Source of the DNA: Candidatus Marinacidobacterales bacterium
GTDB lineage: Bacteria > Acidobacteriota > Vicinamibacteria > Marinacidobacterales > DATDRI01
DNA: 64,000 nt
Assembly (NCBI GenBank): GCA_965226495.1
Contig: OZ245365.1
Coordinates: forward strand, 704,001-768,000
Direction of reading: 5' to 3'
Position numbers and translations under genes: made by a program. Positions 14,524 to 44,788 of the stretch are shown here, in pieces. The notes under the pieces were generated by a model. That model did no database searches. It was not told the DNA's origin and saw only the letters and a list, made by a program, of their open reading frames with translations. Each line of letters opens with the position of its first letter. Within the stretch, counting starts at the first letter, position 1.

Positions 14524-15710
14524 TCGACCACACTCGTCAGGAGCTCGCTGAGCTTACGGCCTCTTTCCTCCCACGAATAACCCTTGGCGTCTTCCGTCGC
14601 CTTCGCGGCGAGCCGGTGCGCCATTTCCGGATCGCCGGCCAACCTTTGTATGGCGGCGGCGAGGGCATCGGGGTCTCCGGGTGGAACGAGAAGCGCGTTC
14701 TCATCGTTCGTCAGAACCTCTCGCAACGATGGAAGGTCCGATGCCACGATGGCTCGACCGGATGCCATGGCTTCGAAGAGTTTGAGGGGCGATGTGAAAA
14801 CGCGGGCCGTCATCGAATCGAGCAACGGGATCACGAACACGTCGGCGCTCGTTCTCTCTTTGGCTACCTCGGGAGGTGGAAGAAAACCTCGAAATCGCAC
14901 GCGGTCGGTGAGGCCGAGTCGTTCCGCGAGGCGACGGACTCGATCGAGGTCGGGTTCCGGTGGAAGTCCACCGATCACCACCAACTCGACTCCAAGTATG
15001 TTTTTCATCGATTCGATGAGAATATCGACGCCCTTCCACGGGTAGAGCTGTCCGACGTAGTACACCTGAAGGGGTTTGTCGGCGGATCGTTCTCGGGGTG
15101 GTTGCGGTTTCGTCGGAACCTCGGTGCCATCCGGGATAACTCGCGCCGGAGCAAGCGGTGCATGGAGCTCGGAAAGAGACTTTAGAAGGCCATGGGTAAT
15201 TGCGACCACCGCAGCCGCTCCTTGGCAGACGCGGTGCTCACGTCGGCTGAGCCTCTTCAACTTGCGAGCACTCGGGGGGCGAGAGTCCGGACCTTGGTAG
15301 AGACGACGGGTTTCCTCTGAAAAGAGCGCGGCCGCAGTGTGGGCCTCGTAGATCACCAGACGTCGGTGGTACCACTTTGTGCGCAAGGCAAGATCGGCCA
15401 GGACGAGGTCTCGCGTGTACACCGCGTCGTACCGGCCGTTCGCCAAGAAAGGGATGGCTCTCGCCGCAAAGGTCAATTGTCCCCAAACCGACCCGGGAGC
15501 CGCGGTGGAAAGACGCCGCAGCTCGAGATTGGGATGCGGGGTGAGCCCGAAGAATTCCAGGCAGGCTTCATCGGATCGGGAATCACTCCGGCGCACCACG
15601 AGATCTACCTGCACCCCTTGTCGAGCCAGCGCGTGGCACGTTTGCACGGTCTGGATACCGTTGGCCCGCTCCATCGGAAAACGGATGTCGGCGAGGTAGA
15701 GCAGTCTCAT
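14520..15710 (-). CDS. GT4 glycosyltransferase
   Basis: Start moved to ATG 15710 (MRLLYLADIRFP..ANGIQT). YVGQLYPWKGV and SPLKLFEAMASG motifs. Confidence 0.9.
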   Translation of the reverse strand: MRLLYLADIRFPMERANGIQTVQTCHALARQGVQVDLVVRRSDSRSDEACLEFFGLTPHPNLELRRLSTAAPGSVWGQLTFAARAIPFLANGRYDAVYTRDLVLADLALRTKWYHRRLVIYEAHTAAALFSEETRRLYQGPDSRPPSARKLKRLSRREHRVCQGAAAVVAITHGLLKSLSELHAPLAPARVIPDGTEVPTKPQPPRERSADKPLQVYYVGQLYPWKGVDILIESMKNILGVELVVIGGLPPEPDLDRVRRLAERLGLTDRVRFRGFLPPPEVAKERTSADVFVIPLLDSMTARVFTSPLKLFEAMASGRAIVASDLPSLREVLTNDENALLVPPGDPDALAAAIQRLAGDPEMAHRLAAKATEDAKGYSWEERGRKLSELLTSVVD

Positions 15711-17860
15711 TGGATGTAGCCTAATGCCCGGAGTGTGTCTTGCATCTCTCGATCCAGCTCCACTTGATTGCGAGCCGACCCCAACGGGAGGTGCCACACC
15801 CGAGCCAGCTCATCCTCCCGGTGAAGGAGGTCGTCTATCTCAGAAAGAGAAACCTGGAGCTCTTTCGGGTTTGCGTCGAAGGGGAACGCGATTGTCTCAA
15901 CACGCTCCGAGCCCAATCTCGCTCTCACCGTTTCGACCGTATGGCCGTCGCGCACAAGGGCGAAGCGAACCGGCGAACCTCCGGTCCTCGTCTGGATGAC
16001 GAGGTGTCGTCTTCTATCGTCGGCGGTGAAGGTGAGCGTCAATTTCTTGCGCTTCGAATCCACGTCGAAGAGGTCCCCGGTAACGATGGGAAACCGGAAC
16101 GCGTTTATGATTTCGACTTCCGACTCAGCATGAACCACAACGCGGGTGCCCGCTTTGTCGCCTCGAATAGAAAAGTGGAGGCCGTGCTGTCCGAGCTGGA
16201 CGAAACGCTCGAGCTCAGCAACGAGCTCGCGCGCCTGGGGCGGAACCGAAGGCAGTAGGTTCTTCCGCTCGGCGCGGTCCTTCTTGACGTCGAACAGATA
16301 CTCTTTTGGCGTCGGGACGAGCTCCCGGATATATTTGTGATCTTCATCGTAAACGGCGTAGCTCACGAACTTCGGGGCCACCAGCTCGGCAAGGAGCCGC
16401 CTTTCGCTCGTCTCGCCCCCTTCGAGTAACGGCGCGATGCTGCGGCCCTGAAAGACCGAGGGAACCGGCAACCCAGCTAGCTCCAGCAGGCTGGGAGCCA
16501 AGTCGATGTTCCCGACCAGCGAGGGTATCCGCCTGCCCGCCTTCTCGGAATGCGGCAATTTCAGAATACCGGGAATATGCAACGCTTCGCGGAAGAGAGT
16601 CTTGCCGTGCCGCGTGAAGTCATGTTCGCCAAATTCTTCGCCGTGATCGGCGGTCACGAGCAGTAGGGTCTCATCGTACAGCTCGAGTGCCTTCAAGGCC
16701 TCGACCAGCCTCCCGATCTCGCGGTCATTGTAGGCGAGCTCGTTGTCGTAGAGCTCCCGGTCCCGAGTTAGTCCCTCTTCAGCAGTCTTCACAAAAATTT
16801 CATCGAAGGGAGGTCGAGGTCGATAGCCGAAGTGGAGATCGAGGGAGTGCAGATACAAGAAGAAGCTCCGGCCACGATTTTCCTCGAGCCACGGGAGGAC
16901 CCCGTTGGTAATGTCGGCCGCGTCACTCTCGAGGGCATTGATGTGTTGCCCTGCGGAGCGCGCCTTGAAAGTCCGAAGATCCACCCACCGGTCGAATCCC
17001 TGGTTGAAAAAGAAAACGCGGGGCTTGATGACCGGATTGGCTACCCAGGCCGCGGTCGTATATCCGGACGCCCGGAATGCTTCGGCGAGGGTCAAGCGTT
17101 CGTAGGGCAGTGCGTCGTCGATGGTGCGCGCTTGGTGGTACATCGGAAGTAGTGAAGTGAACAGGCAGCCGGTGGACGGCTTGGTCCAAGGGGCACACGA
17201 CATGAGCTCCTCGAGGACGACGCCGTCCTCGGCTAGCGCGTCGAGTGTTGGAGTTGCGGGGAGCGGGTAGCCGTAGGCGCCGACGTGGTCGGCTCGAAGA
17301 CAGTCGACCACGTAGACGAGAACGTTGGGTCTTTTCGCCTCCGCCCGCGACGCGACGCCCACGACCTCGGGGTTGCCTAGAATCACCATCGCTTGTGGAC
17401 CGTCAACCGAGAGCTCGAGCTCGAGACTCCGTCCGGCGAAGCGGCTGAGGTCGATGCGACGCTCGACCCAATCTCTCTCTTCTTGCCACACTTCTTGCCA
17501 AATCTCTTGATTGACGACTTCGCCATCCACGACCGTGAGACGGATCTCGACCGGGACCTCCGGCTTCCGCACCGCGAGCCCGAAGCGAAGCTCGCCGCCA
17601 CGAGGAACGTCGCTTCGAAAAAACAACTTCGACGGACTCTCGAGAACCAATGACGGTCGGCGATCGCCATGGATCTCCGCATCGTGTACCTCAAAGGGTG
17701 AGTTGCTGCGCACGACGGCGTTTCGGAGCGAGCCCGGGCGCTGTTCGTCCATCTCGCTCACATCCAGCAGCCGTTGGTACGTCACGAGCCTCTCCGGTGC
17801 TCGCGCGCAATTCGAGACCAAGATGGCAGCAAGGATTGCAAGGAGTCGGCTGAGGGTCAT
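15707..17860 (-). CDS. Sulfatase-like (alkaline phosphatase superfamily) lipoprotein #1, Thr-type motif, with extra N- and C-terminal domains
   Basis: Start ATG 17860 with signal MTLSRLLAILAAILVSNC. Motifs VVDCLRADH, WTKPST, H..DLH and TADHGEEF.EH. Ends LRALGYIQ. Confidence 0.85.
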   Translation of the reverse strand: MTLSRLLAILAAILVSNCARAPERLVTYQRLLDVSEMDEQRPGSLRNAVVRSNSPFEVHDAEIHGDRRPSLVLESPSKLFFRSDVPRGGELRFGLAVRKPEVPVEIRLTVVDGEVVNQEIWQEVWQEERDWVERRIDLSRFAGRSLELELSVDGPQAMVILGNPEVVGVASRAEAKRPNVLVYVVDCLRADHVGAYGYPLPATPTLDALAEDGVVLEELMSCAPWTKPSTGCLFTSLLPMYHQARTIDDALPYERLTLAEAFRASGYTTAAWVANPVIKPRVFFFNQGFDRWVDLRTFKARSAGQHINALESDAADITNGVLPWLEENRGRSFFLYLHSLDLHFGYRPRPPFDEIFVKTAEEGLTRDRELYDNELAYNDREIGRLVEALKALELYDETLLLVTADHGEEFGEHDFTRHGKTLFREALHIPGILKLPHSEKAGRRIPSLVGNIDLAPSLLELAGLPVPSVFQGRSIAPLLEGGETSERRLLAELVAPKFVSYAVYDEDHKYIRELVPTPKEYLFDVKKDRAERKNLLPSVPPQARELVAELERFVQLGQHGLHFSIRGDKAGTRVVVHAESEVEIINAFRFPIVTGDLFDVDSKRKKLTLTFTADDRRRHLVIQTRTGGSPVRFALVRDGHTVETVRARLGSERVETIAFPFDANPKELQVSLSEIDDLLHREDELARVWHLPLGSARNQVELDREMQDTLRALGYIQ

Positions 17861-21099: not shown

Positions 21100-22344
21100 A
21101 TGCTTTCGCCGCACTCACGCCGAGCGAGGTCGAGTCATTCCGTTAATCGATTCGCTATTTCGTGCATGCTCGCCAGCTCCATCATGTCGTGTATCGCAGA
21201 GAGGGAGCCCGACCCGACGGCCGAGGACGTTGCTGAGAACTTACAGTCCCTCTCCTACACCGCCTGGAGCCCGCTCGAGCACGCAGGTAGAGCCGGTGTC
21301 GTAGGCCATGACCGGAGCCGGGCTTATCCAGCTCTCAACCTTTTCAATTCTCTCCCCCGGGCCAGAGCGACACTCATGGACATGGAGGGGAAGACGCTGC
21401 ATGAGTGGTCCCTTGACGCCGCAAAAGAATGGGCACACGTCATGCTGCGGCCAAACGGTGATCTCCTGGTGCTTAGTGAAATCCCCCGGAAGCTCCTTCG
21501 ACTGGATTGGGAGTCCAACGTCATCTGGGAAGAGGAGATCGAGGCCCACCACGACATCGACATCGCCGACAACGGTGACCTTTATGTGTTGACCGGGAAG
21601 GATGAGCGGGTCGATCACGATGGAGTCGAAATCCCGATTAGAAACGAGTTCATCTTGATCCTGACGCCGGATGGGCGAAAGAAGCGTCGCCTTTCATTCT
21701 TACCTATTTTCCGACATCTCCTCGACTTCGACCAGATAAAAAGGTTCGTAGAAACGAACGGCGAGGTGGGCGAGGGGATGCGTTTCGAAGGGGATGCGGT
21801 CGACATTTTTCATGTCAATACTCTCTCCATCATCGACCGGACACACAACGATTTTCTCCGGAAGGGCTTCGTATTGGTAGCCGCCCGGAGCCTCAACCGG
21901 GTCGCGGTCATAGATCTGGAGGCAGAAGAGCTCGTTTGGAGCTGGGGAGAGAACGATCTCGACTGGCCTCACCAGCCCGTGCTCCTAGGGAACGGGAACC
22001 TACTCATCTTCGACAACGGGACCCACCGCAAATACTCCCGGGTGATCGAGCTCGATCCGACGACGGCCGAGATCGTCTGGGAGTACAAGGGCGATCCGCC
22101 GAAGTCTTTTTACACCGCGTTGAGGGGAGGCATCCAGAAGTTAACCAACGGAAACATCCTGGTCACTGAATCACGTCGGGGTCGTGCTTTCGAAATCACG
22201 CACGAGGGAATGATCGTTTGGGATTTCTACAACCCGGATATCTATGAAAGGCCGAAAAGGCGGAGCAAGAGAGCTACTATCTATTGCATGACCAGAATCG
22301 CGCCCGATTTTCTGAACCCCCGTTTGTGGGCCCAGGTTCAGTGA
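21100..22344 (+). CDS. Arylsulfotransferase (ASST) family beta-propeller lipoprotein #1
   Basis: AHHDID, DIFHVNTL, AARSLN, WPHQP, LIFDNG..R.YSRVIELDP and NGNILVTES motifs. IMSC is a possible lipobox. Start uncertain (21100-21170). Confidence 0.85.
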   Translation: MLSPHSRRARSSHSVNRFAISCMLASSIMSCIAEREPDPTAEDVAENLQSLSYTAWSPLEHAGRAGVVGHDRSRAYPALNLFNSLPRARATLMDMEGKTLHEWSLDAAKEWAHVMLRPNGDLLVLSEIPRKLLRLDWESNVIWEEEIEAHHDIDIADNGDLYVLTGKDERVDHDGVEIPIRNEFILILTPDGRKKRRLSFLPIFRHLLDFDQIKRFVETNGEVGEGMRFEGDAVDIFHVNTLSIIDRTHNDFLRKGFVLVAARSLNRVAVIDLEAEELVWSWGENDLDWPHQPVLLGNGNLLIFDNGTHRKYSRVIELDPTTAEIVWEYKGDPPKSFYTALRGGIQKLTNGNILVTESRRGRAFEITHEGMIVWDFYNPDIYERPKRRSKRATIYCMTRIAPDFLNPRLWAQVQ

Positions 22345-22346
22345 GC

Positions 22347-23717
22347 ATGAACGTCCGGTTCCGCTGGGTTCTCTTGATGGCTCAAGTGTTCCTAGGATGC
22401 GCCGGGCATCCTCCGGAAGCCCTAGAGGCTCCAAACGCTCCCGATGGCGTTCTGTTGATTGTGGTCGATGCCTTGCGTCCCGATCACCTCGGTGTGTACG
22501 GGTACGAGCGTGCGACCTCACCCCATCTAGACAAGTGGGCGGAGCAAGCGGCGGTGTTCGAGCGGGCCTTTACGACGTCACCTTGGACGCTACCCTCGTT
22601 CGGATCGATGTTGACCGGAGAATTGCCAGCTCGACATGCTGCCGGTAGCCGGGTGCGGGAGTCCAACTGGACTGTCTCCACCCGTTTGAACGACGCGCTC
22701 CCCACGCTACCTGAGACTCTCGCCGCGTCGGGGTTCGTTACTGGCGCGATCATCAACAATCCTTGGCTTCCTCGCGGTGTCGGATTGGAAAGAGGGTTCG
22801 ATACATACGACTACCAAAGTCCGGATGAACAGAATCATCGGCGCGCCGCAGAGGTCGTAGATCTCTCCTTGAAATGGATTGCGGAGAGCTCAGAGAGTCC
22901 ATTCTTTTTCATGATGCACATCTTGGATCCTCACATGACCTACGATGCGCCCGCACCCGTCCGTGGGCGTTTCACGTCTGGTATGCCCGGTGGGTTCGAG
23001 CTACCCGTGATCGAGCCGCGAAAGATTCGGAAGCGGGCGCAATCCATTGCAGACGGTGAACGCCAGTTCATCACCGCTGCCTATGACGAGGAAATTGCCT
23101 ACGTGGACCAAGAGCTCGGGCGTTTGTTCACGGCGCTCGAAGAAGTGGGTCTCTTCGAACGTTTGGTGATCGTTTTGACTTCCGACCACGGCGAAGAGCT
23201 TTTCGATCATGGAGACTTCGAGCATGGGCACGGAATGTATCAAGAGCTCCTGCGGATCCCGCTTCTGGTCTGGGGACCCGATGTGCTGCCCGGCCGGCAC
23301 ACCGCACCAGTCTCCTTGGTCGATCTGTACGACACGATCCTTGAGTCGGTCGGGGCGACTCCCACGGGGGGGACCGCGGGGCAGTCTCTCTGGCCGGCGG
23401 TCACGAAGGGCGATGCGATCCCCGAGCGGCCGATCCTGGCCGAAGCGACGCTCTACGGGCCGGAGCGCCGCGCCATCATCCGATGGCCGTTGAAGTTGAC
23501 ACTCGAGACGGGTGTCGGCCGCCGCCGGCTCTACAACCTCGAAACCGATCCCGGAGAGCAAGCCGATTTGGCGCCCGAGGAAGAGCGTGCGGTCGAGTAT
23601 TTGTCGAATGAGCTCCGTAGCACGATGCAGGCGGCACGACAGGGAGTTGAGGCGGAGGCACTGCCCTTGGACGAGGAGATGTTGAGGGAGCTGCGCTCAC
23701 TGGGCTATGTCAACTGA
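22347..23717 (+). CDS. Sulfatase-like lipoprotein #2, Thr-type
   Basis: Lipobox FLGC. Motifs VVDALRPDH, WTLPSF, HILDPH and TSDHGEE. Ends LRSLGYVN. Confidence 0.88.
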   Translation: MNVRFRWVLLMAQVFLGCAGHPPEALEAPNAPDGVLLIVVDALRPDHLGVYGYERATSPHLDKWAEQAAVFERAFTTSPWTLPSFGSMLTGELPARHAAGSRVRESNWTVSTRLNDALPTLPETLAASGFVTGAIINNPWLPRGVGLERGFDTYDYQSPDEQNHRRAAEVVDLSLKWIAESSESPFFFMMHILDPHMTYDAPAPVRGRFTSGMPGGFELPVIEPRKIRKRAQSIADGERQFITAAYDEEIAYVDQELGRLFTALEEVGLFERLVIVLTSDHGEELFDHGDFEHGHGMYQELLRIPLLVWGPDVLPGRHTAPVSLVDLYDTILESVGATPTGGTAGQSLWPAVTKGDAIPERPILAEATLYGPERRAIIRWPLKLTLETGVGRRRLYNLETDPGEQADLAPEEERAVEYLSNELRSTMQAARQGVEAEALPLDEEMLRELRSLGYVN

Positions 23718-32481: not shown

Positions 32482-33334
32482 TAGGCCCCCCCTTGCTATG
32501 CGGCTCGATGGCTTTTCTTCCCTCTCCCAAGGGAGAGGGCGTCGGATCGTAGCGATGTCCGCAGGCGCGAAAGAGATCCCGTAGGACCGCCCAGTAGCCG
32601 CCCAACCCTCGGATCTTGGTTGGAGTCGGGCCTTTCTCGGGATAGGTCCGGGTAACGGGGATTTCCTTGACGCGGTAGCCCAATCGCGCTGCGCGGATGG
32701 CGAGGTAGTAGTGTAACTCGTAACCGGAAAAGACGTTTCTAAATACCGCCACCCGAGGGTCCTCGAGCAGTTGACGACTATAGCCCCGGAAGCCGTTGGT
32801 CGTGTCGGTGTACTTGAAACCCGCCGCGAACGAGATGAGAGGCGCGTGAATGACTCTAATCGCCACCAGGCGCATCAAAGGGGTACGGACCGCCTGGCCT
32901 CCTTCGATGAAGCGGGAACCTTGAAGGTAGTCGGACCCTTCCTTCAAAGCGTCGACGAATGATGGGAGGGCGCTTGGGTCGTCCTTGTTGTTCCCGTCCA
33001 TGGCTACCACGCCCTGGTACCCTTCGCGAAGTGCGTATCGAAAGGCCATCCGCATCTGCGCCCCGAGCCTTCCAGGGCCCGTCTTGACGAGGAGGGAACG
33101 CACGTTGCGAGACGCCAAATTCTCTCGCTCGACGGATCCATCGATGCTGCCTCCGTCCACGACGATGACGTCGATCTCGTCTGTAAGGGGGCGCATCTTG
33201 TCGAGTTGGGCGAGCAGTTTCTCTCCCTCGTTGATAACGAAGACTGCGACGCAAAACCGATGGCCCTTGGGGCGCAGCTCCTCGACTCGATGGTCCGGTA
33301 CCTCCCAGCCTTGCTCGTTGAGCTCTCCGGTCAC
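32474..33334 (-). CDS. GT2 glycosyltransferase (polyprenyl-phosphate sugar synthase-like)
   Basis: VINEG, VDGGSIDGS, MDGNNKDDP, QGSRFIEGG and DTTNGFRGYS motifs. Confidence 0.88.
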   Translation of the reverse strand: MTGELNEQGWEVPDHRVEELRPKGHRFCVAVFVINEGEKLLAQLDKMRPLTDEIDVIVVDGGSIDGSVERENLASRNVRSLLVKTGPGRLGAQMRMAFRYALREGYQGVVAMDGNNKDDPSALPSFVDALKEGSDYLQGSRFIEGGQAVRTPLMRLVAIRVIHAPLISFAAGFKYTDTTNGFRGYSRQLLEDPRVAVFRNVFSGYELHYYLAIRAARLGYRVKEIPVTRTYPEKGPTPTKIRGLGGYWAVLRDLFRACGHRYDPTPSPLGEGRKAIEPHSKGGPNA

Positions 33335-35469: not shown

Positions 35470-35572
35470 GGTGAGGGCTCCCGTCCACTCTGGATGTGTG
35501 CGGTTGTCGTTACGAAATGCACACGAGGAGGCGCCGCTCCACCCGAAATCTTCGTTTCACCGCAAACAATTG

Positions 35573-35581
35573 TGCTATACT
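35573..35581 (+). promoter_or_regulatory. Putative extended -10 (TG-C-TATACT)
   Basis: Lies in the divergent intergenic gap about 20 nt before TTG 35602. Confidence 0.45.
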
Positions 35582-35601
35582 TCGCGCTCGGCAACAAGCC
35601 A

Positions 35602-37812
35602 TTGCTGATCCCTTCTCATCGCACGGTCCTCTACGCGTTTTGGGTGTGCGTCTGCATTTTCCTGCTTTTCTTTCCGCTCTCTTCTAATCCGACGACTTTT
35701 CTGCCCGACGACGGGGACGCGCTGCAGGGGCTTTATGTGCAATCGTGGGTGGCTCACCAGTTTCCGAAGGCGCCGTTAGAAATCTTCGATAGCAACTTCT
35801 ACTACCCCCATCCCACCGGCCTAGTCTACTCGGAGCATCTGATCCCTCAGGGGCTGGTAGTCGCGCTTCTGATGAAACTGGGGGCCAATCTCATATTAGC
35901 GAACAACCTGGTGCTGGCGCTCACGCTGCTCATGATCGCGCTTTTCGTCAGGTTGTGGGCCCGTGAGCTCGGAGTTGGCGAAACGGGAGCCGCGGTGGCG
36001 GGGGTCGTTTGTGCGCTCAGTACGTTCACGCTTCTTCAAGCGTCTCGCGTCCAGATCTTGTCGATGCAGTGGATCCCCCTATGCCTTTTTTTCCTTCACC
36101 GGTTTTTCAGGAGAGGTCGTTGGTTGGATGCCGCAGCTTTCGCCGCTTGTTTCGTCTTGCTGGGGCTTTCGTGTCAGTACTACCTCATTTCGTTTCCCCT
36201 CTTCTTAGTTCCGGTGGTTGCCGGGTACGTCTATTTGTTTCCAGACCGGCGAAATCTTCGGGACGCATTCCGGCTCGGGGTGCCATTGTTCTTCGGCTGC
36301 CTACTTTTGGTTCCTGTAGAGCTCCCATACCTGAAGATATTTCACCACTACGGGTTCGAGCGCGCCCTGTCCGAAGGCCCGGACCTTGCTTACCATCTCT
36401 TGCCTCCGCCCGATAATTTCCTGTACGGCTGGCTCACCAAGGGGATGTTTAAGGATTTGCCGGGCAATCACCATTTCATCGGATACTTGACGATGGTACT
36501 GGCTGTGCTCGGCGCCGCATTCCTCCTAAGAAGGAGAAACGACGCTGGACCTCGCAGTTATCGGTGGTTGATTGCTTGGATCGCGTCTTGGGGAGTCTTC
36601 TTCCTCATTCTTTCCGCTGGAGCCGAGGTGAAGTTCATGGGACGGGGTCTCGGCCCGGGTCCATTCGGCCTACTCTTCGACTACGTTCCGTTTTTCCAAT
36701 ACACGCGAGTTCCGGAGCGGCTATCCGTCTATTTCACGTTCGGCCTCGCATTGCTCGCCGGTGCAGGAGCTTCGGTGCTTTCGAAACGACTGGTCCGCTG
36801 GCCCCGGGCAAAGACCGTTCTGCCGTTGATACTCCTGGCTTTGATTCCGTTGGAGCATGCACGCCGTAACGTGTATGCGCGGATCCCCACCGAAGACGAA
36901 ATCCCTGCCGTCTACCATTGGCTGGCCGAGCTCCCGGAAGATTTTCCGGTGGTCGAGTTCCCGGTGTACGACCGAAGGTTCTTACGTTTCTACGGCTACG
37001 AGACCTATTTCTCCACGGTTCACTGGAAACGCGTTCCGTTCGGGAAACCGAGTTTCAAACCGCCCGCCATGGAGTACATGCTTTGGACCTGGCGCGATTT
37101 TCCTTCGAGCGAAGGCACACGTCTTCTGCAGTCGTTGGGGGTTCGCTACATCATTTATCATCCCCGTCGCGATCCCAACGCCGCCAGAGTTAATCGGCGA
37201 CTCCGGCAGGATCCGAACTTCGAATTCGTTCGCCAATTTCCTCGAGCGATGCGAATCGCCAGGCGGCTACGTTATGGCGAAGAGATGGTGTTCCGCGTGC
37301 TCCCCGCTTCCGAGCCCCTTTCACCACCCCCACAAGTCGAAGAGCGGCTTCGGGCGATACCGCGAGACGCGTGGGAGTTCAAGACGTCCTCACAATCGGA
37401 TGCACGCCTAGCCGTGGACGGCAGTCTGGAAACGAGTTGGAGCAGCGGCAAGGGGCAGGAAAAAGGGCAATTCTTCGAGATCGATCTCGAGGGAGAGTAT
37501 CGAGTGTCCAAGATCTCGCTAGGATTCAGTTTTCCTTACGGGCATTTTCCGCGCTCGCTCGCGGTCAATGGCTTTCATCCGTCACATCGATGGAGGCGTC
37601 TCGAGCTCGAGGAAGATCCATGGCAGAGCGCACGTTTAGTGCGACGTCTGGTTGAGAACCCCAAAGAGGCGACGATGGATGTCGTACTGCGAGAGCCCCA
37701 ACTATTGGAGAGATTACGGCTCTTCATACGCGAGGCAGATCCGAGCGACGTCGGACCTGTTTGGCGCATCCCGGAGGTCCAAGTCTTCGAGGCTCTGCCG
37801 CATCATCGATGA
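35602..37812 (+). CDS. GT-C-like membrane protein with C-terminal discoidin (F5/8 type C, CBM32-like) domain
   Basis: Paralog of 4982..6724 (FDSNFYYP...YSEH, RVPER, YFSTVHWKR). C-terminal AVDGSLETSWSSGKGQ..GQFFEIDL...W.IPEVQVF. Start uncertain (TTG 35602). Confidence 0.78.
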   Translation: MLIPSHRTVLYAFWVCVCIFLLFFPLSSNPTTFLPDDGDALQGLYVQSWVAHQFPKAPLEIFDSNFYYPHPTGLVYSEHLIPQGLVVALLMKLGANLILANNLVLALTLLMIALFVRLWARELGVGETGAAVAGVVCALSTFTLLQASRVQILSMQWIPLCLFFLHRFFRRGRWLDAAAFAACFVLLGLSCQYYLISFPLFLVPVVAGYVYLFPDRRNLRDAFRLGVPLFFGCLLLVPVELPYLKIFHHYGFERALSEGPDLAYHLLPPPDNFLYGWLTKGMFKDLPGNHHFIGYLTMVLAVLGAAFLLRRRNDAGPRSYRWLIAWIASWGVFFLILSAGAEVKFMGRGLGPGPFGLLFDYVPFFQYTRVPERLSVYFTFGLALLAGAGASVLSKRLVRWPRAKTVLPLILLALIPLEHARRNVYARIPTEDEIPAVYHWLAELPEDFPVVEFPVYDRRFLRFYGYETYFSTVHWKRVPFGKPSFKPPAMEYMLWTWRDFPSSEGTRLLQSLGVRYIIYHPRRDPNAARVNRRLRQDPNFEFVRQFPRAMRIARRLRYGEEMVFRVLPASEPLSPPPQVEERLRAIPRDAWEFKTSSQSDARLAVDGSLETSWSSGKGQEKGQFFEIDLEGEYRVSKISLGFSFPYGHFPRSLAVNGFHPSHRWRRLELEEDPWQSARLVRRLVENPKEATMDVVLREPQLLERLRLFIREADPSDVGPVWRIPEVQVFEALPHHR

Positions 37813-38014
37813 GCCATTTGTCCACTGGTGGGGGATCCTCCTAGACTCGGCTTTCCCTGCGTTATACTCGCCATCGATTTGATGCTGGCTTCCTTCTCCC
37901 CGTAGCGAGACTACGGCCGTCAAAATACGCGATGCCAAAGATAAACGTGGCCAGACGACGGGTGAGGGGCTCATGTTGAGAGAGCTGGTGACACTCTGGC
38001 CGGGCGGTCCGGCC

Positions 38015-39661
38015 ATGACCTTTGCCAGCTACTTCGTTACCTTCAAGTATGTTTTCACCGTCGCTTTCCTTTGCTGGGCGATCGGCATTCTCCGATGGCC
38101 GAATCGATGGTGGCTGTTCGGCGGTTCGCTCTTGCTCGCTGCGTTGGCGTGGACTGTCTTAGAGCTCCCTCTGGGACGCCCTTACGGCGTCGTCGAAGGT
38201 GAGCAAGGGCTTTCCGCCCTAGCGCAGCCGATGGTGGCGGCCGCTCGAGGGACGGCCGCAGATGGATGGATGGTCCATCAGCCGAACCCGCAACCACTTT
38301 GGAGCCTCGTTCTGGCCTTTGCGTCGGGCTTCGATCCCGGGCGGCTCTTTTCTTTTTACGACTTCATTCCATTGGTGGGGATGATCTTCCTCGCCTCGGC
38401 CGTTTTCTGGTTCATGGGTGCGTTTGACGACGAGGAATCGACTGGGCTTGCGAGAGGGCTCGCAGTATTCTTCGTTCTATTCCTCAGCTCGACACGGTTG
38501 AGCTTTCTTGAAACTCCCGGGCCATTTTGGCTCGACGTCTTTGGCCAGCGGCCGCACTTGGCCTTCGCTCTGGGGCTGCTCGTCATATGGCTCAAGCTGC
38601 TCGGGGGAGCTCGTCGGCTTCCGTCCTTTCTGGGAGCAGGCGCTCTGCTTGGACTCATCGCGTGGATGGAGCCCCGCGTCGCGGCACCAGCCGTTCTCGG
38701 CGCTATCGCGTGGGTGGTGGTGAGCCGCGGGATTTCGACCGCAGGCTGGAAGACCGGAGTGACTCTGACGGTTGGAGCCCTCTTGTTTCTTCCGTGGTCC
38801 AAAGTTCTCGAGCCAGCCGGGGCTCCCCTCGAGACGGGCGCCTTGTACTTCGCGTTCGACCACTTTCTTGGTCTTACAATGGACAAAGGGCTGGTTTTTT
38901 ATCTCGCGGTGTTCGCCCTAGTCCGTATGGTCCGTGGCGGCAGGGCTACGGAAGTCCTTTTCGTGAGTCAGGTTGGAACGGTGTTGGTTCTGGCAACGGT
39001 ATCGTTTCTGACCCCGAGCGTCGCTTCATGGACCGACATCCGGATTGTCGGTGCTACGTTGAATCTCTTGCTCGCGATGGCAGCGGGGCGAGGTGCTTGC
39101 TGTCTCGTGGAATGGCTGGAGCAAAGCCTCGGGGGCGGTCCGATCGGCACGAGGTATTTCAAAAACGTTTCGCTTCACGCCTTGGGAATGACTGCGGTGG
39201 TGGTTTTCTCGCTGCCGTGGGCTTTCCCATACTGGTGGCATCCGGTACTGATGGATCCAGTCTATGTTCGGAGTGTTGAGCCGGTCGCTCCGCAGTTCGG
39301 CCCCCTGGTCTCTTGGATCGGAACGGAAACCGAGCCCGATGCCGTTTTCGTTGCCGGACCTAGCTACTCATCTTGGATACCGGCGCTGAGCGGAAGGCGA
39401 GTCTTAATCGTCGAACGGGCCGTTGTCCCTCCGTCGGATCTGGACGAGCGGCGGCAAGCCGAGTCCTGGTTCGCCGAATCAGAGGATCCGGCCAGAATTC
39501 GCGGCGCCGCGTCTCGGTGGAGCCTGACGCACCTGGCAGGGGGCCGCCTCGACAAAGACGCGCAGCTACAAGTGGACCACACGTTCTTCGAAGAAAGTCG
39601 GGACTTCTCGCTGGTTTGGCAGCAAGGGCGTTGGATTCGGGTCTTCAAATACCAGCGCTAG
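38015..39661 (+). CDS. Polytopic membrane protein, probable GT-C-like glycosyltransferase
   Basis: More than 10 hydrophobic segments followed by a soluble C-terminal domain (WI...T.PDAVF, WIPALSGRRVL) like those on other GT-C proteins. Assignment relies partly on context. Confidence 0.55.
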   Translation: MTFASYFVTFKYVFTVAFLCWAIGILRWPNRWWLFGGSLLLAALAWTVLELPLGRPYGVVEGEQGLSALAQPMVAAARGTAADGWMVHQPNPQPLWSLVLAFASGFDPGRLFSFYDFIPLVGMIFLASAVFWFMGAFDDEESTGLARGLAVFFVLFLSSTRLSFLETPGPFWLDVFGQRPHLAFALGLLVIWLKLLGGARRLPSFLGAGALLGLIAWMEPRVAAPAVLGAIAWVVVSRGISTAGWKTGVTLTVGALLFLPWSKVLEPAGAPLETGALYFAFDHFLGLTMDKGLVFYLAVFALVRMVRGGRATEVLFVSQVGTVLVLATVSFLTPSVASWTDIRIVGATLNLLLAMAAGRGACCLVEWLEQSLGGGPIGTRYFKNVSLHALGMTAVVVFSLPWAFPYWWHPVLMDPVYVRSVEPVAPQFGPLVSWIGTETEPDAVFVAGPSYSSWIPALSGRRVLIVERAVVPPSDLDERRQAESWFAESEDPARIRGAASRWSLTHLAGGRLDKDAQLQVDHTFFEESRDFSLVWQQGRWIRVFKYQR

Positions 39662-41532
39662 CGCGAGAGGCCGGCCAGGGAACAAAAAGTCTGCAGGTCG
39701 GCGCGGTACCTCACCGCCCAGACAATTATCAACCCGGCGACAATCATCACCGCGGCGATCTTGCCGGCTCGATTTCGTTTTGCGAGCTCGAGGATGCTGG
39801 CGCTCGCGGAGATCGCAATCAGGGGACCCACAAAGAGTATCTCCTTTAAGTCTTTGAACAGGCCGCCCGATAGACCCCTCAAGCCCAGGAGGAAGACAAA
39901 GGTCAAGAAGTAGGCGAGCATGGGACGGAAGACGCTAGGTTCGCGCCGACGATACACGAGGATCATTCCTACCACGGCAAGAGCCCAGTATCCGACGTCG
40001 TAGAAGATGAGTGGCCGGCGTAAGGCTGCCGCAAAGCCAGCGCTTGCCCCGCCCTCCAGGGTTGGCAGACCGGAGTTTCCGAGGGTGGGCACTATCTCGG
40101 TCAGAAACGTCCATGTGAAAGACGAGTAAAGCACTGCGATGGCAATGATGGCGGCAACTGCGCCGACGAGGAGCGGCCCCAGCCGTCGCTGTAGCGCCGC
40201 GAAAAGAGAAGTGAACGGGGCCAAGGTAAATAGGCTCGAGACATAGGTGAGGAAAGAAGCGAGAGAGAGCCCGCCAAACACGAGGAGTCCACGAAGGCTG
40301 GAGGGCGATCGGGCGAGCAGCGCCGCCGATGTGATCGTCAGCACGTCGAGAAGGTGACCCCATGTGGTCGGCCACATCGCAAGGAAGAGGCGGTTGTACA
40401 TGACGGGAAGAAAAGCCGCTAGAAGCGCAGCCAGTATCCCATTGCCAGATCCCAGCCAGATCGTAGCCAGCCAGTAAACGACGATGGTCTGCGCCGCCGC
40501 CGCGGCGAGAGCCGCGTATTTGAGCGCCTCGTCGACCTGCGCACGATCGCGCAGTCCGGTGAAGGGTAGATAGAAAAGCGGCGAGTAGGGAAAGGCGTAG
40601 CGTTTGCCTCCCACGTTGCGAGGGTAGGCGATGTTGCTCTTTTCTTGAGCCGCCACTCCCCGTGCCTCGAGGCTAACTCCTTCAGACGGGAATGCTAGGA
40701 CATATCGTCCGTGCGTCAGCACGTCGGGGGAGAAGAAGCTGGGGTAAAAAATGGCTGCGCCTTTCAGTAGATAGCCCACCATGAATAACAACGGAAGCCA
40801 ACGTCGGTCCTCGGCTTCGGAGATGAAGCGGCTGAGGACGATGGTGACTCCGCCGAGCAACACCGCGCGCGAGGCGATCTTGTCACTCACGTGCGCCACC
40901 CCAAAGGGATCCACCGCGAACCAGGTAGCCTGAATGGCGGACAGAATGAAGGCGGCGGTGAAAGCATGCGACAAGCGAAGGCCGGAAAGAAGGCAAACTA
41001 GGAAGAGACCTGCGACCAGCAGGCGCGGTGGCCAGAAGTCGAGCGGTAGTCTAGCTCTCGTTCCTTCGAAGCGGATCCAGTCGACGGCGATTCCAAGCCT
41101 TTCGGGCGCGGGATCTTCGGTCAGTAGCTCTACCCGTACAGGATTTCCGTTGAAGCGAACCGGAAGCCTCTGGATACGAAATCTCCCCGGGCGCGCTTCG
41201 AACGAACCGGCCGGTTGACCATCCACGAAGAGACGTACTCGCGCCATTCCATCGAGAAAACGCCCGTAGCGGAGGACTACGGCACCTTCGCCCTGCGAGC
41301 TCAGGAGGAAAGTGGACACAGAGGCCGTCTCGTGCGTCCACCGAAAGCTGACGCCAGGGCGTTCCTCACTCTCAGCGAATCCCGAAAGGTAGTCTTCGGT
41401 GGAGGGGCCGATGTCGACGTCCACCGGACCCCCAGCACGACTCGCCAGCAAGAGCAGCGTTTCGCTGAAAACGAGCAGTGCGATGCAGGCGACTCCGAGC
41501 CGCGACCAATGTCTAAGGGGTCGTCTGCTCAT
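39658..41532 (-). CDS. GT-C-like membrane protein with N-terminal beta-rich domain
   Basis: Start ATG 41532. GFAESEE...FRWT domain, SPDVLTH and FPYSPLFY motifs, many TMs. Confidence 0.65.
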   Translation of the reverse strand: MSRRPLRHWSRLGVACIALLVFSETLLLLASRAGGPVDVDIGPSTEDYLSGFAESEERPGVSFRWTHETASVSTFLLSSQGEGAVVLRYGRFLDGMARVRLFVDGQPAGSFEARPGRFRIQRLPVRFNGNPVRVELLTEDPAPERLGIAVDWIRFEGTRARLPLDFWPPRLLVAGLFLVCLLSGLRLSHAFTAAFILSAIQATWFAVDPFGVAHVSDKIASRAVLLGGVTIVLSRFISEAEDRRWLPLLFMVGYLLKGAAIFYPSFFSPDVLTHGRYVLAFPSEGVSLEARGVAAQEKSNIAYPRNVGGKRYAFPYSPLFYLPFTGLRDRAQVDEALKYAALAAAAAQTIVVYWLATIWLGSGNGILAALLAAFLPVMYNRLFLAMWPTTWGHLLDVLTITSAALLARSPSSLRGLLVFGGLSLASFLTYVSSLFTLAPFTSLFAALQRRLGPLLVGAVAAIIAIAVLYSSFTWTFLTEIVPTLGNSGLPTLEGGASAGFAAALRRPLIFYDVGYWALAVVGMILVYRRREPSVFRPMLAYFLTFVFLLGLRGLSGGLFKDLKEILFVGPLIAISASASILELAKRNRAGKIAAVMIVAGLIIVWAVRYRADLQTFCSLAGLSR

Positions 41533-42913
41533 TGGGTCGGCGCCACAAGGCGAGGAAGGCCAGGCCCGCCATGGCGAGGATAAACAGGATCTTTCCCACT
41601 GCGAGGAGACCAGCCATTCCGGAAAAACCCCACTGTTGAATGAAAATCCAGGAGAGCCCGAGCACGAACGCGGTGTGCACGCCGACTCCTTGCGCGTATT
41701 GGCGGGCCCGCCCTGAGGCGTAGTAGAGCGGCTTGACCGCGAAGAATGCCGCCTCCACCGCGGCACCGGCCATCATGAACTGAAGGCCGACCACCATGGG
41801 TCGGTAGATCTCGCCGAAAGCCCATGGGACCAAGACCGGCAGGATGGGTATGCTCAGCAGCAACAGCAGACAAATAGGAAGACCACCCTGAAGAGTCCAT
41901 CGCTCGATGCTCTTCTTCAGCGACTCTATTTCTCCTTTGGCCCAGCGACCAGAAAAAATTGGATACGCCACACGGCCTAGCGCCTGGCCGATCTGTGAAG
42001 CGGCAAGCACGAGACTGCTGGCCAGACGGTAATAGCCCGCGGTCTCCGGGCCGCGAAGCCAACCGAGTAGAATCAACGGACCCTGGGCCATCAATCCGCC
42101 AAAGGAGACGATGAGATAGTTCCATCCGAAGAACGAGCCGAGCTCTCTCCACGAATGTCTCAACTGACCGAGGGGCGCGGACCACCAGGCGCCGATGCCT
42201 GCGTTCTTCGAAGTCCATGTGGCAAAGGCCATGAGCAGAAGACCACCGGTCGCTTGGGCAACCGCCGTCCCTAAAACCATTCCCGCAACGTCGAGACCAC
42301 CCAACAGCAAGCCGACAACGAGGACGAATTGGATAACTCGTTCGCATAGTTGCAAACCCGCCAGCGAGCGAAACTCTTGCAATGAAGTCAGCACTGCGGT
42401 CCCCGTTCCTCTCAGAGAGGAGAAAACGAACGACGAGCTGTAGGCAACGATGACCGTTGTCGCTCCCGGTCGATCAACGACGTGGGGCGTCAACCAAATG
42501 GCACTCAGGCCGATCACTGCAAACGCCACGAACGAAGCTAGGAGATCGACCACGTAGCCGAGCTTGCACATGCTTTCGAACTCGGAAACCTTTCGCGTCG
42601 AAACGAACCCGGCTAGGTAGCGTGTGGTCACGGACGCCGATTTGACCGACGTGAGGGACCAGACCAGGTTTGGATACGCCATGATCAGTGCAGCAACGCC
42701 GTAGGAAGACGGTCCCAGCAGACGGGCGGCGGCGATGGAGGTGAGCAAATTGACGCTCGCCCCCACGTACTGAGACGCCGCAAGAGCCCCGGCGCCACTG
42801 ACCATCGGGTGGCTCAGCAGCCGCCAGAAGCCTGCCCAAACGCCGTCGCCGAAGGCTGCCCCGTCGGTCTGCCGAGCGGTAGGGTAATCGTTGTCTTCTT
42901 CGGGATGGAGCAT
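41513..42913 (-). CDS. Wzx/MOP-family oligosaccharide flippase
   Basis: About 12 TMs. AARLLGPSSYG and LGWLRGPETAGYYRLA..L motifs. Confidence 0.88.
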   Translation of the reverse strand: MLHPEEDNDYPTARQTDGAAFGDGVWAGFWRLLSHPMVSGAGALAASQYVGASVNLLTSIAAARLLGPSSYGVAALIMAYPNLVWSLTSVKSASVTTRYLAGFVSTRKVSEFESMCKLGYVVDLLASFVAFAVIGLSAIWLTPHVVDRPGATTVIVAYSSSFVFSSLRGTGTAVLTSLQEFRSLAGLQLCERVIQFVLVVGLLLGGLDVAGMVLGTAVAQATGGLLLMAFATWTSKNAGIGAWWSAPLGQLRHSWRELGSFFGWNYLIVSFGGLMAQGPLILLGWLRGPETAGYYRLASSLVLAASQIGQALGRVAYPIFSGRWAKGEIESLKKSIERWTLQGGLPICLLLLLSIPILPVLVPWAFGEIYRPMVVGLQFMMAGAAVEAAFFAVKPLYYASGRARQYAQGVGVHTAFVLGLSWIFIQQWGFSGMAGLLAVGKILFILAMAGLAFLALWRRPNEQTTP

Positions 42914-42938
42914 AGCGCCTCAGAGAAGTCTCTTGAGA

Positions 42939-44788
42939 CTAATTAATGTAACCCAAAGCGCGTAGCGTTTCCTTGGTTTGTTCGTCCAGAATCACACCCG
43001 CACCTGATACGCGATCTCCTTTTGCCTTGGCTAAGAATGTTCGCACGTTGGCTAATAACATTTTGGTTTCCGTCTCTTTGGACCGACTGAGGTCGTTTTG
43101 CTCTTCGGGATCATCTGCCAAATCGTAGAGCTCTTGTTGCACGACCTGCGTTCGGCCCTCGGGGTTGGAGAGCGTCACGACGTATTTCAGATCTCGAATT
43201 CTCATCGCGATCTTCACGCAGCTATCGCCTTCCGCACAGCCGAGTGAGCCCTGTGACACCTCGCTGATGACGCTTCTTTCGTCGAAAGCGTGGCTCTGCC
43301 ATTCTGCCAAGTCCAAAGCTCCGGTTGGCGGCGGATCGATACCCGCGGCTCGCAATACCGTGGGGAATATGTCGGTTTGGCTGGCCAGCGTCTTCGCCCG
43401 TCCGGTCGGTAGATTCCCCGGCCACTTCACTACGAGGGGTATGCGGATGATTTCATCGTACAGGCTAACCGTATGTTGCCAGTGCCCGTGTTCGTAGAAG
43501 GCTTCGCCGTGGTCGGCGGTCACGATGATGAGCGTGTCATCGTAGAGGTCTCGCGCCTTGAGCTCATCGAGAAGTCGTCCAATCTGCTCGTCCACAAATC
43601 CAACCTCGGCGTCGTATAAACGGATTACGTCGTCTATCTCGACTTGGTCCTTCGGCTTGCCTCCGTCGAACACCTTGTCGAGCAAGTCCGAGATGTCCGG
43701 GGGGCGCGGTCCGAATCGCTCGCGCCATGTTTTCGGCGATAGGTATGGCCAGTGCGCGTCGATTAGGTGAACGAAGAGGAATTGCTCTGTTCCTTCGCCG
43801 CGACCGAGCAAATCGATGGCGGCGTCTATTGTTTTGTCCGCTGTGCTACCTACCATTAACCGGTAGTTGTGAAAACCGCGATAAAAGTTGAAGTGTTGCG
43901 AGACGAAGTACCAGGAAGCCACTCCGACGACTTGATAGCCAGCGCGAGAGAGGAGCTCGGGCAAGTAAGCGACATCATCGCTCAGCTTCCGCTGACGGGT
44001 GACCCCGTGGAAAGAAGGTAGAAGGCCGGTCAGCATGGAGAAATGAGTGGGCAGGGTCCATGACGACGTGCTGAAGGCCGCCTCGAAAACCGTCCCATTC
44101 TCGGCCAGGGCATCGATGTGGCGGGTCGTGTCTCTCGTGTAGCCATACGCTCCGACGTGATCGGCTCGCAGGCAGTCGATGGAAATTAGAACCACCGGGG
44201 GCCGGTCGCCGCGATAAGTCTTGCTCGACACCGTCGGGCTGCCCCAGACTGGCATCACTCGCTGGGCAGTCCATTGCACGCGGTCCCGAGGACGGTCGAC
44301 TCGGGTCTCGAATGTCAGTCGCAGTCGGCGTCCCTCCCATTCCGATAGATCGATTTCCCGATCTAGCCAACGTCCCGCCTGGTTGCGGCGGAGGCTTTCC
44401 GTGAAGAGAGACTTGCTGACGCCGTCGGCTTCGGCCAGCAATCGGAATTCGACCGGGGGAATACCTTGGCATCGCCGATCGGATTGAGGGCGATGGCGAA
44501 CCGCAGGATCGGATTCGACGGCACCCTGACCCCGAACGCGAATCGCGACGGGAGAGGAGGAGCGAGCGCCAGTCGGGACTCATCCTCGAGCGTGATCGGC
44601 AACGACAGCCTCGCGTCGTTTCGGCTCGAGAGAAACAGTTTCCGGTTGAAAGTCGCCTCCGCCTCATTCAAATGATCGATGAAGTAAAAGGGGGGAGGCG
44701 GTTTCGCGCTTCCATCGCCACAACCGGTAGCGTTCAGCGCGAGGAGCGAGAACGCTATGAGATATTGCCGCGCAGGCTCACGTAGCAT
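42939..44788 (-). pseudogene. Sulfatase-like lipoprotein #6, Thr-type, split by a frameshift near 44457 (possibly sequencing error)
   Basis: N-terminal part 44363..44788 (lipobox ATGC) joins 42939..44441 (SIDCLRADH, WTLPTH, TADHGE, ends LRALGYIN) if the G5 run at 44455-44459 were G6, giving FPPVEFRLLAE. Confidence 0.83.

Follow-up and report, generated by a model that had tools for sequence, protein, structure and literature searches.

Six genes with the Pfam sulfatase domain PF00884 (S1 to S6) and two genes of the arylsulfate sulfotransferase (ASST) family (A1 and A2) lie together in a 64,000-nucleotide stretch from a Candidatus Marinacidobacterales bacterium. This stretch, called the window here, is bases 704001-768000 of one 6.34-Mb contig, and the genes are given in window coordinates (Table 1). 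We argue that the six sulfatase-like genes belong to a large and so far uncharacterised clade of the alkaline phosphatase (AP) superfamily that has the fold of an S1 sulfatase and a different catalytic centre. Judging from their residues and their neighbours, these are on balance probably Thr-nucleophile phosphoryl-transfer enzymes that act with GT-C glycosyltransferases on an envelope glycolipid or glycan.

PF00884 is matched in six open reading frames (ORFs) of the window, at 137.7-179.3 bits for the five full genes and 32.3 bits for the S5 fragment, against a cut-off of 25. A first-pass annotation of this DNA had described six such genes with Thr in the catalytic motif, five of them retaining the motif and the sixth cut right after WT. 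Both Pfam and a reading of the motifs confirm this. The five full genes read W-T-[LK]-P-[ST]-[THFI] (WTKPST, WTLPSF, WTLPTH, WTLPSI and WTLPTH). In the portion of the SulfAtlas paper cited here, an S1 sulfatase is defined by a Cys or Ser precursor of formylglycine (FGly) within C/S-x-P/A-x-R, and 30 of the 59 PF00884 seed sequences are said to carry Thr and not to deserve the name sulfatase (PMC5066984). The Thr type discussed there is TxNxE, which is different from the WT type found here (PMC5066984). None of the five full genes has C/S-x-P/A-x-R with its Cys or Ser. When S3 is aligned to four solved sulfatases with HMMER, its Thr falls on the Ser/Cys nucleophile of S-x-P-S-R, and Thr also aligns on the nucleophile Cys of seven Cys-type sulfatases from the same genome. 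The earlier placement of Thr at the nucleophile position therefore stands in sequence alignment. WT[LIV]P[TAS][HY] can be read in 114 of the 120 best S3 homologues, which means the motif is not due to chance.

The surrounding active site has changed as well. A family alignment of 53 sequences (mean identity 40%, S3 numbering) has D40, T80, H96, D211, H213, D295, H296, H308, K403, L481, G485 and Y486 as invariant residues. Seven Cys-type and six Thr-type proteins of this genome were also aligned with each other. In the Thr type the Asp-Asp pair becomes Asp followed by [CAST], the motif Arg becomes His, Phe, Ile or Thr, the Lys and His of GKWH are gone, and so is the Lys after D-N-G. The Arg, the Lys-x-His of GKWH and the Lys after D-N/H-G are the cationic residues that bind sulfate in S1 sulfatases. 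The seven Cys-type proteins retain this set and the Asp-Asp pair, with variations, while all six Thr-type proteins are without them. What the Thr type has gained relative to the Cys type is H-x-x-D-x-H and D-H-G-E...H. Motif, invariant columns and comparison with the Cys-type sulfatases agree with the first-pass annotation that these are not formylglycine sulfatases. A Mn-arylsulfatase of Enterococcus faecium that came up as an NCBIfam match was considered as a Thr enzyme and rejected, since it uses Cys61.

This Thr/His/Asp residue set argues for phosphoryl rather than sulfuryl chemistry. D40, T80, D211, H213, D295, H296 and H308 appear to be placed as in the two-metal enzymes EptA/MCR-1, LtaS/GacH and the nucleotide pyrophosphatases/phosphodiesterases (NPP). 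In MCR-1 the ligands of Zn1 are Glu246, Thr285, Asp465 and His466, and those of Zn2 are His395 and His478 (PMC5175174). The acidic ligand and the Thr are 40 residues apart in S3 (D40-T80) and 39 in MCR-1 (Glu246-Thr285), and the last His follows Asp-His after 12 residues in both (H296-H308 and His466-His478). H213 and H308 are invariant, and H213 may correspond to His395, a match by spacing and not by superposition. GacH and LtaS have a Glu/Thr/Asp/His site with Mn (set E488/T530/D711/H712; 10.1101/337519). As a pattern in sequence, the acidic/Thr/Asp/His order of LtaS, GacH and EptA is present here with D40, T80, D295 and H296 all invariant. NCBIfam models match S3 below their cut-offs: CptA over residues 28-125 (E 1.4e-11, 43.7 bits against 404) and LtaS over 248-355 (E 2.6e-05, 23 bits against 970), with further sub-threshold matches to arylsulfatase, phosphoethanolamine-transferase and YejM models. 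PF01663 is above cut-off on S3 (69.6 bits), S6 and others. Phospho-substituent transfer had been offered in brackets by the first-pass annotation as the alternative to sulfuryl transfer, and it is the bracketed option that fits the active-site residues best.

The fold is still that of a sulfatase. The AlphaFold2 model of S3 (predicted local distance difference test score, pLDDT, 89.9) has the two-domain sulfatase architecture, and its closest top-listed Foldseek matches are S1 sulfatases, with template modelling (TM) scores of 0.62-0.68. The best 60 PDB profile matches are all FGly sulfatases or phosphonate monoester hydrolases (PMHs), headed by 9s03 (E 5.4e-56), so no solved Thr-bearing member was found among them. 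There are at least 2220 S3 homologues at E <= 1e-10 among the 8000 scored. Those with a name are called "arylsulfatase A-like enzyme" or "sulfatase" and come mostly from Planctomycetota and Acidobacteriota. The nearest named relatives are in metagenome-assembled genomes (MAGs) of Acidobacteriota, at 82% identity under the label Candidatus Marinacidobacterales and at 68% under the label Vicinamibacteria. A literature search for a study of the WT-type Thr clade, with supplements outside its scope, found none.

The Thr proteins also form their own clade. A profile of the five paralogues matches 50 ORFs in this genome: 31 of the Thr type, 13 of the Cys type and 6 fragments that lack the motif region. 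Pfam gives 55 sulfatase-domain matches, and the genome also holds genes of the formylglycine-generating enzyme type and an adenosine 5'-phosphosulfate (APS) kinase. A maximum likelihood tree was built from the 35 rows that had 330 or more aligned residues, and it separates 28 Thr proteins from the Cys-type sulfatases with 100/100 support. One "T" row falls within the Cys group, but this is a one-column misalignment of C-T-Q-S-R. S6 and four genes at 780-788 kb of the contig are recent duplicates in this tree. S1, S2 and S4 are deep separate branches and not recent duplicates.

Gene neighbourhood is the other part of the argument. The Thr proteins are predicted to be exported, several as lipoproteins, and some appear translationally coupled to GT-C genes. 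The coupled sets are YfhO-S1-GT4 and PMT_2-S4-S3; S1 and the YfhO gene share 4 nt, and the overlap of S4 with S3 is GTGA. Ten of the 31 Thr-type ORFs lie in a ~70-kb stretch of glycan genes at 719-789 kb. This stretch has RmlD, an RmlC-like gene, several GT4 and GT2 genes, a GT2+DUF2304 pair, Wzx and YfhO. It also has two PMT_2-like genes, a PTPS_related membrane protein (44.7 bits in Pfam), methyltransferases, a 1627-aa F5/8-type-C protein and a sulfotransferase of the type that uses 3'-phosphoadenosine 5'-phosphosulfate (PAPS). The four Thr-type genes at 780-788 kb stand in a row (L013:12219-19995), interrupted by an FdhD/NarQ gene, and come after the 1627-aa F5/8-type-C/fn3 protein and GT4 genes. 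There is no ASST gene with these four.

The association with GT-C genes extends beyond this genome. Neighbourhoods of S3 homologues were compared in 20 loci, with L012 (25% identity, Bacteroidales) left out as a non-member. PMT_2 or GT87 genes at or above the Pfam cut-off occur within ~8-10 kb of the homologue in five of the 20 (L003, L007, L010, L048 and L050). PMT_2 is the adjacent gene in L003, L010 and L050, which come from two phyla, and is fused to TPR repeats in the latter two. The background is estimated at ~4% per 17 kb (14 matches in 6.34 Mb). PMT_2 is below cut-off in L004 and L052, L011 has a DUF2298 fragment, and GT2 genes are present in L003, L007, L049 and L052. It should be said that seven loci (L005, L006, L008, L009, L045, L046 and L054) were screened for GT-C genes with a crude home-made PMT_2 hidden Markov model (HMM) only. 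This HMM was trained on four loci that it then scored, and its non-seed matches alone count, after a recheck with Pfam. Phmmer searches with the GT-C proteins of the window missed the PMT_2 genes of L003 and L007 that Pfam later found, so "no GT-C" results from phmmer are weak. In the closely related locus L001 the order is kept for PMT_2-S4-S3, S2-A1 and YfhO-S1-GT4-RmlD, with A2 absent. The gene pairs suggest that the Thr proteins and the GT-C enzymes share an envelope glycoconjugate as substrate.

Two side observations belong here. The genes of L001, which is a Marinacidobacterales MAG, are split into many frame fragments, and this looks like assembly indel error. Elsewhere in the genome under study (1134889-1136070) a Thr-type gene is directly followed by an ORF (~1136087) that matches the crude PMT_2 HMM, a second pair of this kind.

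The reaction we propose would begin with attack of a metal-activated Thr on a phosphoester, which is probably a phosphodiester. The resulting phospho-Thr intermediate would be resolved by water or by a sugar hydroxyl. Phosphate-linked groups could in this way be removed from, added to or exchanged on an envelope glycolipid or glycan, and the neighbouring GT-C enzymes would glycosylate the same substrate from polyprenyl-phosphate sugars, before or after. Residues, fold, clade and gene neighbourhoods are what we observe; from them we infer the metals, the substrate and the choice between transfer and hydrolysis.

Several points weigh against this proposal. The best 60 PDB matches are all FGly sulfatases or PMHs, and the Thr clade has no studied member. 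The metal ligands are equated by their spacing, and when the Thr family was compared by hhalign with a PF01663 protein of the same genome, only the DHG half aligned and the second His was left unpaired. The proteins have no membrane domain to reach lipid donors, which makes transfer less certain than hydrolysis. About 13 of the 20 homologue loci are without a GT-C gene, although several are short contigs and seven are those screened by the crude HMM only. The genomes compared are related and not independent. Nutrient scavenging would also be consistent with a set of 31 ORFs in one genome. Enzymes of the AP superfamily are promiscuous, and some sulfatase or sulfotransfer activity is possible.

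A1 and A2 must be considered separately. PF05935 and PF14269 are both above cut-off in these two ORFs, in line with the earlier recognition of two ASST genes among the Thr genes. A phmmer search of the PDB with the single A2 sequence gave nothing useful, and a profile was needed. The profile of 17 ASST-like sequences matches Cpz4 (9kf4 and 9kf6, E 1.3e-13) with the HD, HxN, H, FDN and GN blocks aligned. The A2 model (pLDDT 86.4) is a six-bladed propeller that is also closest to Cpz4 (Foldseek E 2.3e-17, TM 0.64), followed by the E. coli ASST, EcAST (E 2e-11). It has 400 residues, with a flexible N-terminal segment ahead of the propeller and no EcAST-type beta-sandwich domain. The sulfo-His of EcAST is His436, surrounded by His252, His356, Asn358 and Arg374 (PMC13426309). 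H280, H227 and N229 are invariant in the 17 sequences, and H139-H140-D141 is at least 90% conserved. H280 pairs with His436 only in the weak alignment of the profile with EcAST (E 0.086), and the Arg is missing in 2 of the 17. According to the cited part of a 2026 review, Cpz4 favours the hydroxyl of a sugar, and what these enzymes do in nature is unknown (PMC13426309). A search for a paper on 9KF4 found none. A1 and A2 would be separate Cpz4-like sulfotransferases that are probably active.

Their link to the Thr genes is local. Thr gene and ASST gene meet at only two junctions, S3-A2 (14-nt gap) and A1-S2 (2-nt gap). The coupling claimed by the first-pass annotation therefore holds for these pairs and fails for the other Thr genes, and its statement that all the genes are co-oriented is wrong, since five are on the minus strand and three on the plus strand. 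The two closest relatives keep one ASST each beside the Thr genes (A1 in L001, A2 in L002), and there is no ASST homologue in 10 more distant S3-homologue loci. Viewed from the other family, 31 of the 201 Acidobacteriota genomes sampled have an ASST-like gene, and one of the 20 ASST-like loci fetched has a Thr-type neighbour (L036). An ASST-like gene is present in 6 of the 12 other genomes with a strong S3 homologue and in 24 of the 188 without, in genomes that are related to each other. In the six genomes with both families the best S3 homologue never adjoins the ASST-like matches. PMT_2 stands beside ASST-like genes in L025 and L035, and below cut-off in L033. Of the associations that had been suggested as a check, adjacency to GT-C genes recurs in other phyla and adjacency to ASST genes does not. 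Having ASST-like genes here is a trait of the lineage and not of the Thr family. A second ASST-family pair was seen at L015:13545-15939 (~821.5-824 kb) beside an FG-GAP protein, with no Thr-type gene adjoining, and a sulfatase-fold fragment lies beside an IS91-type transposase at 828 kb (L016).

There is also a cytoplasmic sulfotransferase to consider. The Sulfotransfer_3 protein lies 10 kb beyond the S6 end of the locus and has an HSGTT loop and no signal peptide. It is the sole copy found in the genome with this single query, and the query matched nothing in the 20 ASST and 20 S3 loci. A PAPS-type enzyme of this kind would offer a conventional way to sulfate a glycan or to make an aryl-sulfate donor. 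We recognised no type III polyketide synthase and no other gene that would make the donor. Should the glycan carry sulfate, this is likelier to come from the PAPS enzyme and the Cpz4-like proteins than from the Thr proteins.

One feature is common to both families. All five full Thr genes end in L-[RE]-[AS]-L-G-Y-[IV]-[QN], and so do most of the 120 homologues. The LxxLGY tail ends 22 of the 50 profile-matched sulfatase-fold ORFs and none of the 13 Cys-type ones. A stricter form of the pattern occurs 67 times in the genome against 18-26 times in shuffles, and the excess consists of the Thr proteins, four PF01663 phosphodiesterases and one ASST-like protein. In Thr proteins fused to TPR repeats the motif follows the catalytic domain and precedes the TPR. 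The ASST-like proteins have L..L[GPA]Y just after the signal or anchor in all 17 aligned sequences (invariant L37 and Y42). In A1, whose start is uncertain (21100 or 21166), the motif after the signal is LQSLSY, and in A2 it is LRALPY. The tail of the S3 model has a pLDDT of 62-75, and the motif segment of A2 is under 50. LxxL[GP]Y is thus seen on flexible ends of three families, at the C-terminus in Thr-type PF00884 and PF01663 proteins and at the N-terminus in ASST-like proteins.

Other explanations of the locus have to be weighed against phosphoryl transfer. The first-pass annotation favoured a sulfuryl-transfer system, in which the ASSTs load sulfate onto the Thr proteins or onto a phenolic donor, and sulfate then moves via the sulfo-Thr of each paralogue to one glycan position. 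The coupling of A1-S2 and S3-A2 and the adjacency of A1 or A2 in L001 and L002 fit this, as do the HHD, HxN and His kept by the ASST-like proteins (the last aligned only weakly with His436), the motif common to both families, the PAPS-type sulfotransferase and APS kinase, and the higher frequency of ASST-like genes in S3-positive genomes, which as kin are not independent. However, the sulfate-binding residues are all lost and the His/Asp set looks like the two-zinc site of MCR-1. Beside S3 homologues, ASST adjacency is confined to L001 and L002, being 0/10 in the more distant loci. The Thr genes at 780-788 kb do without an ASST, and the tail is also found on NPP-type phosphodiesterases. One paralogue for each sugar position becomes less plausible with 31 Thr-type ORFs across the genome, and we know of no enzyme with a sulfo-Thr intermediate. 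With no sulfate-type site and no conserved ASST linkage this explanation has lost its two supports, and we regard it as very unlikely. Sulfatase chemistry could also be rescued if a radical-SAM/SPASM enzyme oxidised the Thr to an FGly-like keto residue, giving a new kind of sulfatase. Anaerobic sulfatase-maturating enzymes (anSMEs) can oxidise Thr peptides. A radical-SAM/SPASM gene is present in the glycan locus, and oxidation of Thr would yield a ketone (SulfAtlas, PMC5066984). The loss of the sulfate-binding residues and the broken C/S-x-P-x-R recognition motif make this hardly credible. The same gene was tried as an anSME and rejected: the best 25 of 73 NCBIfam matches were far below cut-off and none was an anSME model.

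Another alternative is that the Thr proteins are periplasmic phosphoesterases that scavenge organic phosphorus, and that their position in a glycan locus is an accident of tandem duplication in a region rich in exported proteins. The number of such ORFs in one genome, the recent duplication of S6 and the 780-788 kb genes and the abundance of the family in Planctomycetota and Acidobacteriota all agree with this. So do L047, L051, L053 and L055, where no GT2, PMT_2 or GT87 gene lies beside the homologue; the neighbours in these loci and in L011, which has just its DUF2298 fragment, are transporters, a TonB receptor, aconitase and the like. Translational coupling to GT-C genes speaks against accident, as does PMT_2 as the next gene in loci of two phyla. 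The locus brings together old paralogues (S1, S2, S3 and S4), and no pho-type genes were noticed near the Thr genes. We consider scavenging unlikely, though serious enough to keep in mind. One can also picture the LxxLGY enzymes (Thr-type PF00884, PF01663 and ASST-like) as clients of PMT_2 glycosyltransferases, which are often TPR-fused, with the motif as docking peptide or O-glycosylation site. The genes would then be linked as those of an enzyme and its protein substrate, and not through a common glycan pathway. The motif is on low-confidence flexible ends in the S3 and A2 models and recurs on three folds that are unrelated or distant. Binding of terminal peptides is frequent among TPR domains, and PMT_2-TPR genes lie beside S3 homologues (L010 and L050, weakly L004) as PMT_2 genes do beside ASST-like genes. 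Yet in TPR-fused Thr proteins the motif is within the same chain, ahead of the TPR, and the invariant catalytic residues mark the proteins as enzymes in their own right. This seems to us improbable. Phosphoryl transfer alongside GT-C enzymes is the reading we prefer.

A broader scheme may be built on phosphoryl transfer, and we offer it very tentatively, as something rather unlikely in its entirety. A PMT_2 GT-C enzyme, often TPR-fused, and a soluble or lipid-anchored Thr enzyme, whose flexible C-terminal LxxLGY tail would serve docking or modification, might form a conserved extracytoplasmic module of Acidobacteriota and Planctomycetota. The present lineage would have added Cpz4-like sulfotransferases with this motif at the N-terminus, and the envelope glycan would be both phospho-modified and sulfated outside the cytoplasm, with sulfate coming from the cytoplasmic PAPS enzyme via an exported aryl sulfate.

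Two of the Thr genes are damaged. The reading of S5 breaks off right after SSWT and ~1.07 kb is missing internally. Its N-terminal 239 residues are 82% identical to the intact orthologue of L001, and a 15-residue C-terminal piece with the LGY tail survives in another frame. We class S5 as a deletion pseudogene. In S6 a single-base frameshift, close to a C5 run at about 44440, cuts the signal and N-terminal domain off from the catalytic part; this could be a sequencing error or real decay. As for export, the lipoprotein-type signals claimed for all eight proteins were found in S2, S3 and S4 by a strict PROSITE-like lipobox rule. The other five have a hydrophobic N-terminus with a Cys that misses this rule. 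Read by eye, S4 has SRRELL, a twin-arginine-like motif, ahead of its lipobox, which suggests export as a folded, metal-loaded lipoprotein.

Table 1. Genes and motifs of the glycan locus in window coordinates
Feature	Position	Strand	Evidence
Second PMT_2 GT-C gene, edge of the same glycan super-locus	725-2515	-	PF13231 49 bits
Radical-SAM/SPASM protein in glycan locus	11774-12946	-	no NCBIfam match near cut-off
S1, Thr-type PF00884, WTKPST, tail LRALGYIQ	15707-17860	-	Pfam E 4.2e-49
YfhO-family GT-C membrane glycosyltransferase, 1049 aa	17857-21006	-	PF09586 78.9 bits, cut-off 28.5
A1, ASST-family beta-propeller protein	21100-22344	+	PF05935 52.8 bits, PF14269 47.6 bits
S2, Thr-type PF00884 lipoprotein, WTLPSF, tail LRSLGYVN	22347-23717	+	Pfam E 6.1e-45
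A2, ASST-family beta-propeller protein	23728-24924	-	PF05935 45.1 bits, PF14269 52.2 bits
S3, Thr-type PF00884 lipoprotein, WTLPTH, tail LRSLGYIQ	24939-26405	-	Pfam E 8.4e-51
S4, Thr-type PF00884 lipoprotein, WTLPSI	26402-27820	-	Pfam E 6.7e-40
PMT_2-like polytopic membrane protein, probable GT-C	27913-30033	-	PF13231 23.9 bits, below cut-off 26.1; hydropathy
S5, pseudogene, Thr-type PF00884 fragment	30099-30862	+	profile positions 1-49 only, E 8.4e-08
AglJ-like GT2, polyprenyl-phosphate sugar synthase-like	32474-33334	-	Pfam; NCBIfam AglJ E 1.5e-11
PgfS-like GT2, polyprenyl-phosphate sugar synthase-like	33336-34322	-	Pfam; NCBIfam PgfS E 9e-50, below cut-off
Three polytopic membrane proteins (839, 562, 702 aa), candidate GT-C-like	35293-41766		no confident family
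Wzx-type flippase (Polysacc_synt), downstream of S6	41513-42913	-	Pfam
S6, Thr-type PF00884, WTLPTH, tail LRALGYIN, frameshifted	42939-44788	-	Pfam E 1.4e-52
DUF2304 gene	47753-48151	-	Pfam
GT2 gene directly before DUF2304 gene	48170-48913	-	Pfam
Cytoplasmic PAPS-type sulfotransferase, Sulfotransfer_3	54899-55849	-	PF13469 81 bits
LxxL[GP]Y motif	tails of S1-S4 and S6; L040-L043; N-termini of A1 and A2 (about 21200 and 24820)		

Some of these features need a comment. S1 has a beta-rich N-terminal domain and an extra C-terminal insert. The YfhO-family protein has ~12 hydrophobic segments by hydropathy, and its PgfM1/PgfM2 matches are weak. The PMT_2-like gene is upstream of S4-S3-A2 and its orthologue is present in L001. 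The 839-aa membrane protein has a weak F5/8-type-C match, and an Atlas search with the 702-aa protein returned just hypothetical acidobacterial clusters and a DUF6311 lead.

These results bear on how sulfatases are counted. Planctomycetota and Acidobacteriota are often cited for having sulfatases in very high numbers. Of the 44 PF00884 ORFs with a readable motif in this genome, 31 are Thr-type and cannot make formylglycine, so counts based on Pfam or on the name "arylsulfatase A-like" overstate the capacity for removing sulfate. The Thr clade has at least 2220 proteins and no studied member, and a single characterised enzyme would annotate thousands of genes. The repeated pairing with PMT_2/TPR GT-C genes suggests that these two poorly studied phyla modify their envelope in a way not yet described. 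The exported Cpz4-like proteins raise the question of sulfate addition outside the cytoplasm, where PAPS is absent.

It remains to compare the locus with known systems. By sequence and fold the S proteins best match the S1 sulfatases and PMHs, and they have the same two-domain architecture and nucleophile position. They differ in having Thr for Cys/Ser, in missing the Arg, Lys-x-His and Lys, and in forming a separate clade. With NPP (PF01663) they have in common N-terminal motifs in the style of D-x-x-R-x-D and T-x-P-x-H and the LxxLGY tail, which also ends four PF01663 proteins of this genome, but they are best modelled by PF00884 with the sulfatase C-terminal subdomain. EptA, MCR-1 and CptA resemble them in the conserved Thr, in Asp-His with a His after 12 residues, in a His that may stand at the His395 position and in sub-threshold NCBIfam matches on both motif regions. 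Here the first ligand is Asp instead of Glu, there is no membrane domain and the NCBIfam cut-offs are not reached. There is no evidence here for lipid A as the substrate of the Thr proteins.

GacH and LtaS belong to the AP superfamily and have a Thr nucleophile in an acidic/Thr/Asp/His metal site, as the S proteins appear to. GacH has 11 transmembrane segments and LtaS has 5 (10.1101/337519). The S proteins are without such an N-terminal polytopic domain and have just a signal peptide or lipobox ahead of the catalytic or beta-rich domain. Their fold and sequence are far nearer to S1 sulfatases, they have an SGSH_C-like C-terminal subdomain and the LxxLGY tail, and their host is a diderm acidobacterium. 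The A proteins differ from Cpz4 and EcAST in being exported, membrane-tethered and in a glycan locus, with an N-terminal LxxL[GP]Y and no beta-sandwich. The locus as a whole is of the GacI-GacJ-GacK-GacL type in its rhamnose genes (RmlD, RmlC-like), GT2+DUF2304 pair, Wzx flippase and GT-C genes. GacJ is a DUF2304 protein and the partner of the GT2 enzyme GacI, and GacL is a GT-C enzyme (10.1101/180810). The GT2+DUF2304 genes of the window form the pair known from streptococci as GacI/GacJ and from mycobacteria as PpgS/Rv3632, here in an acidobacterium.

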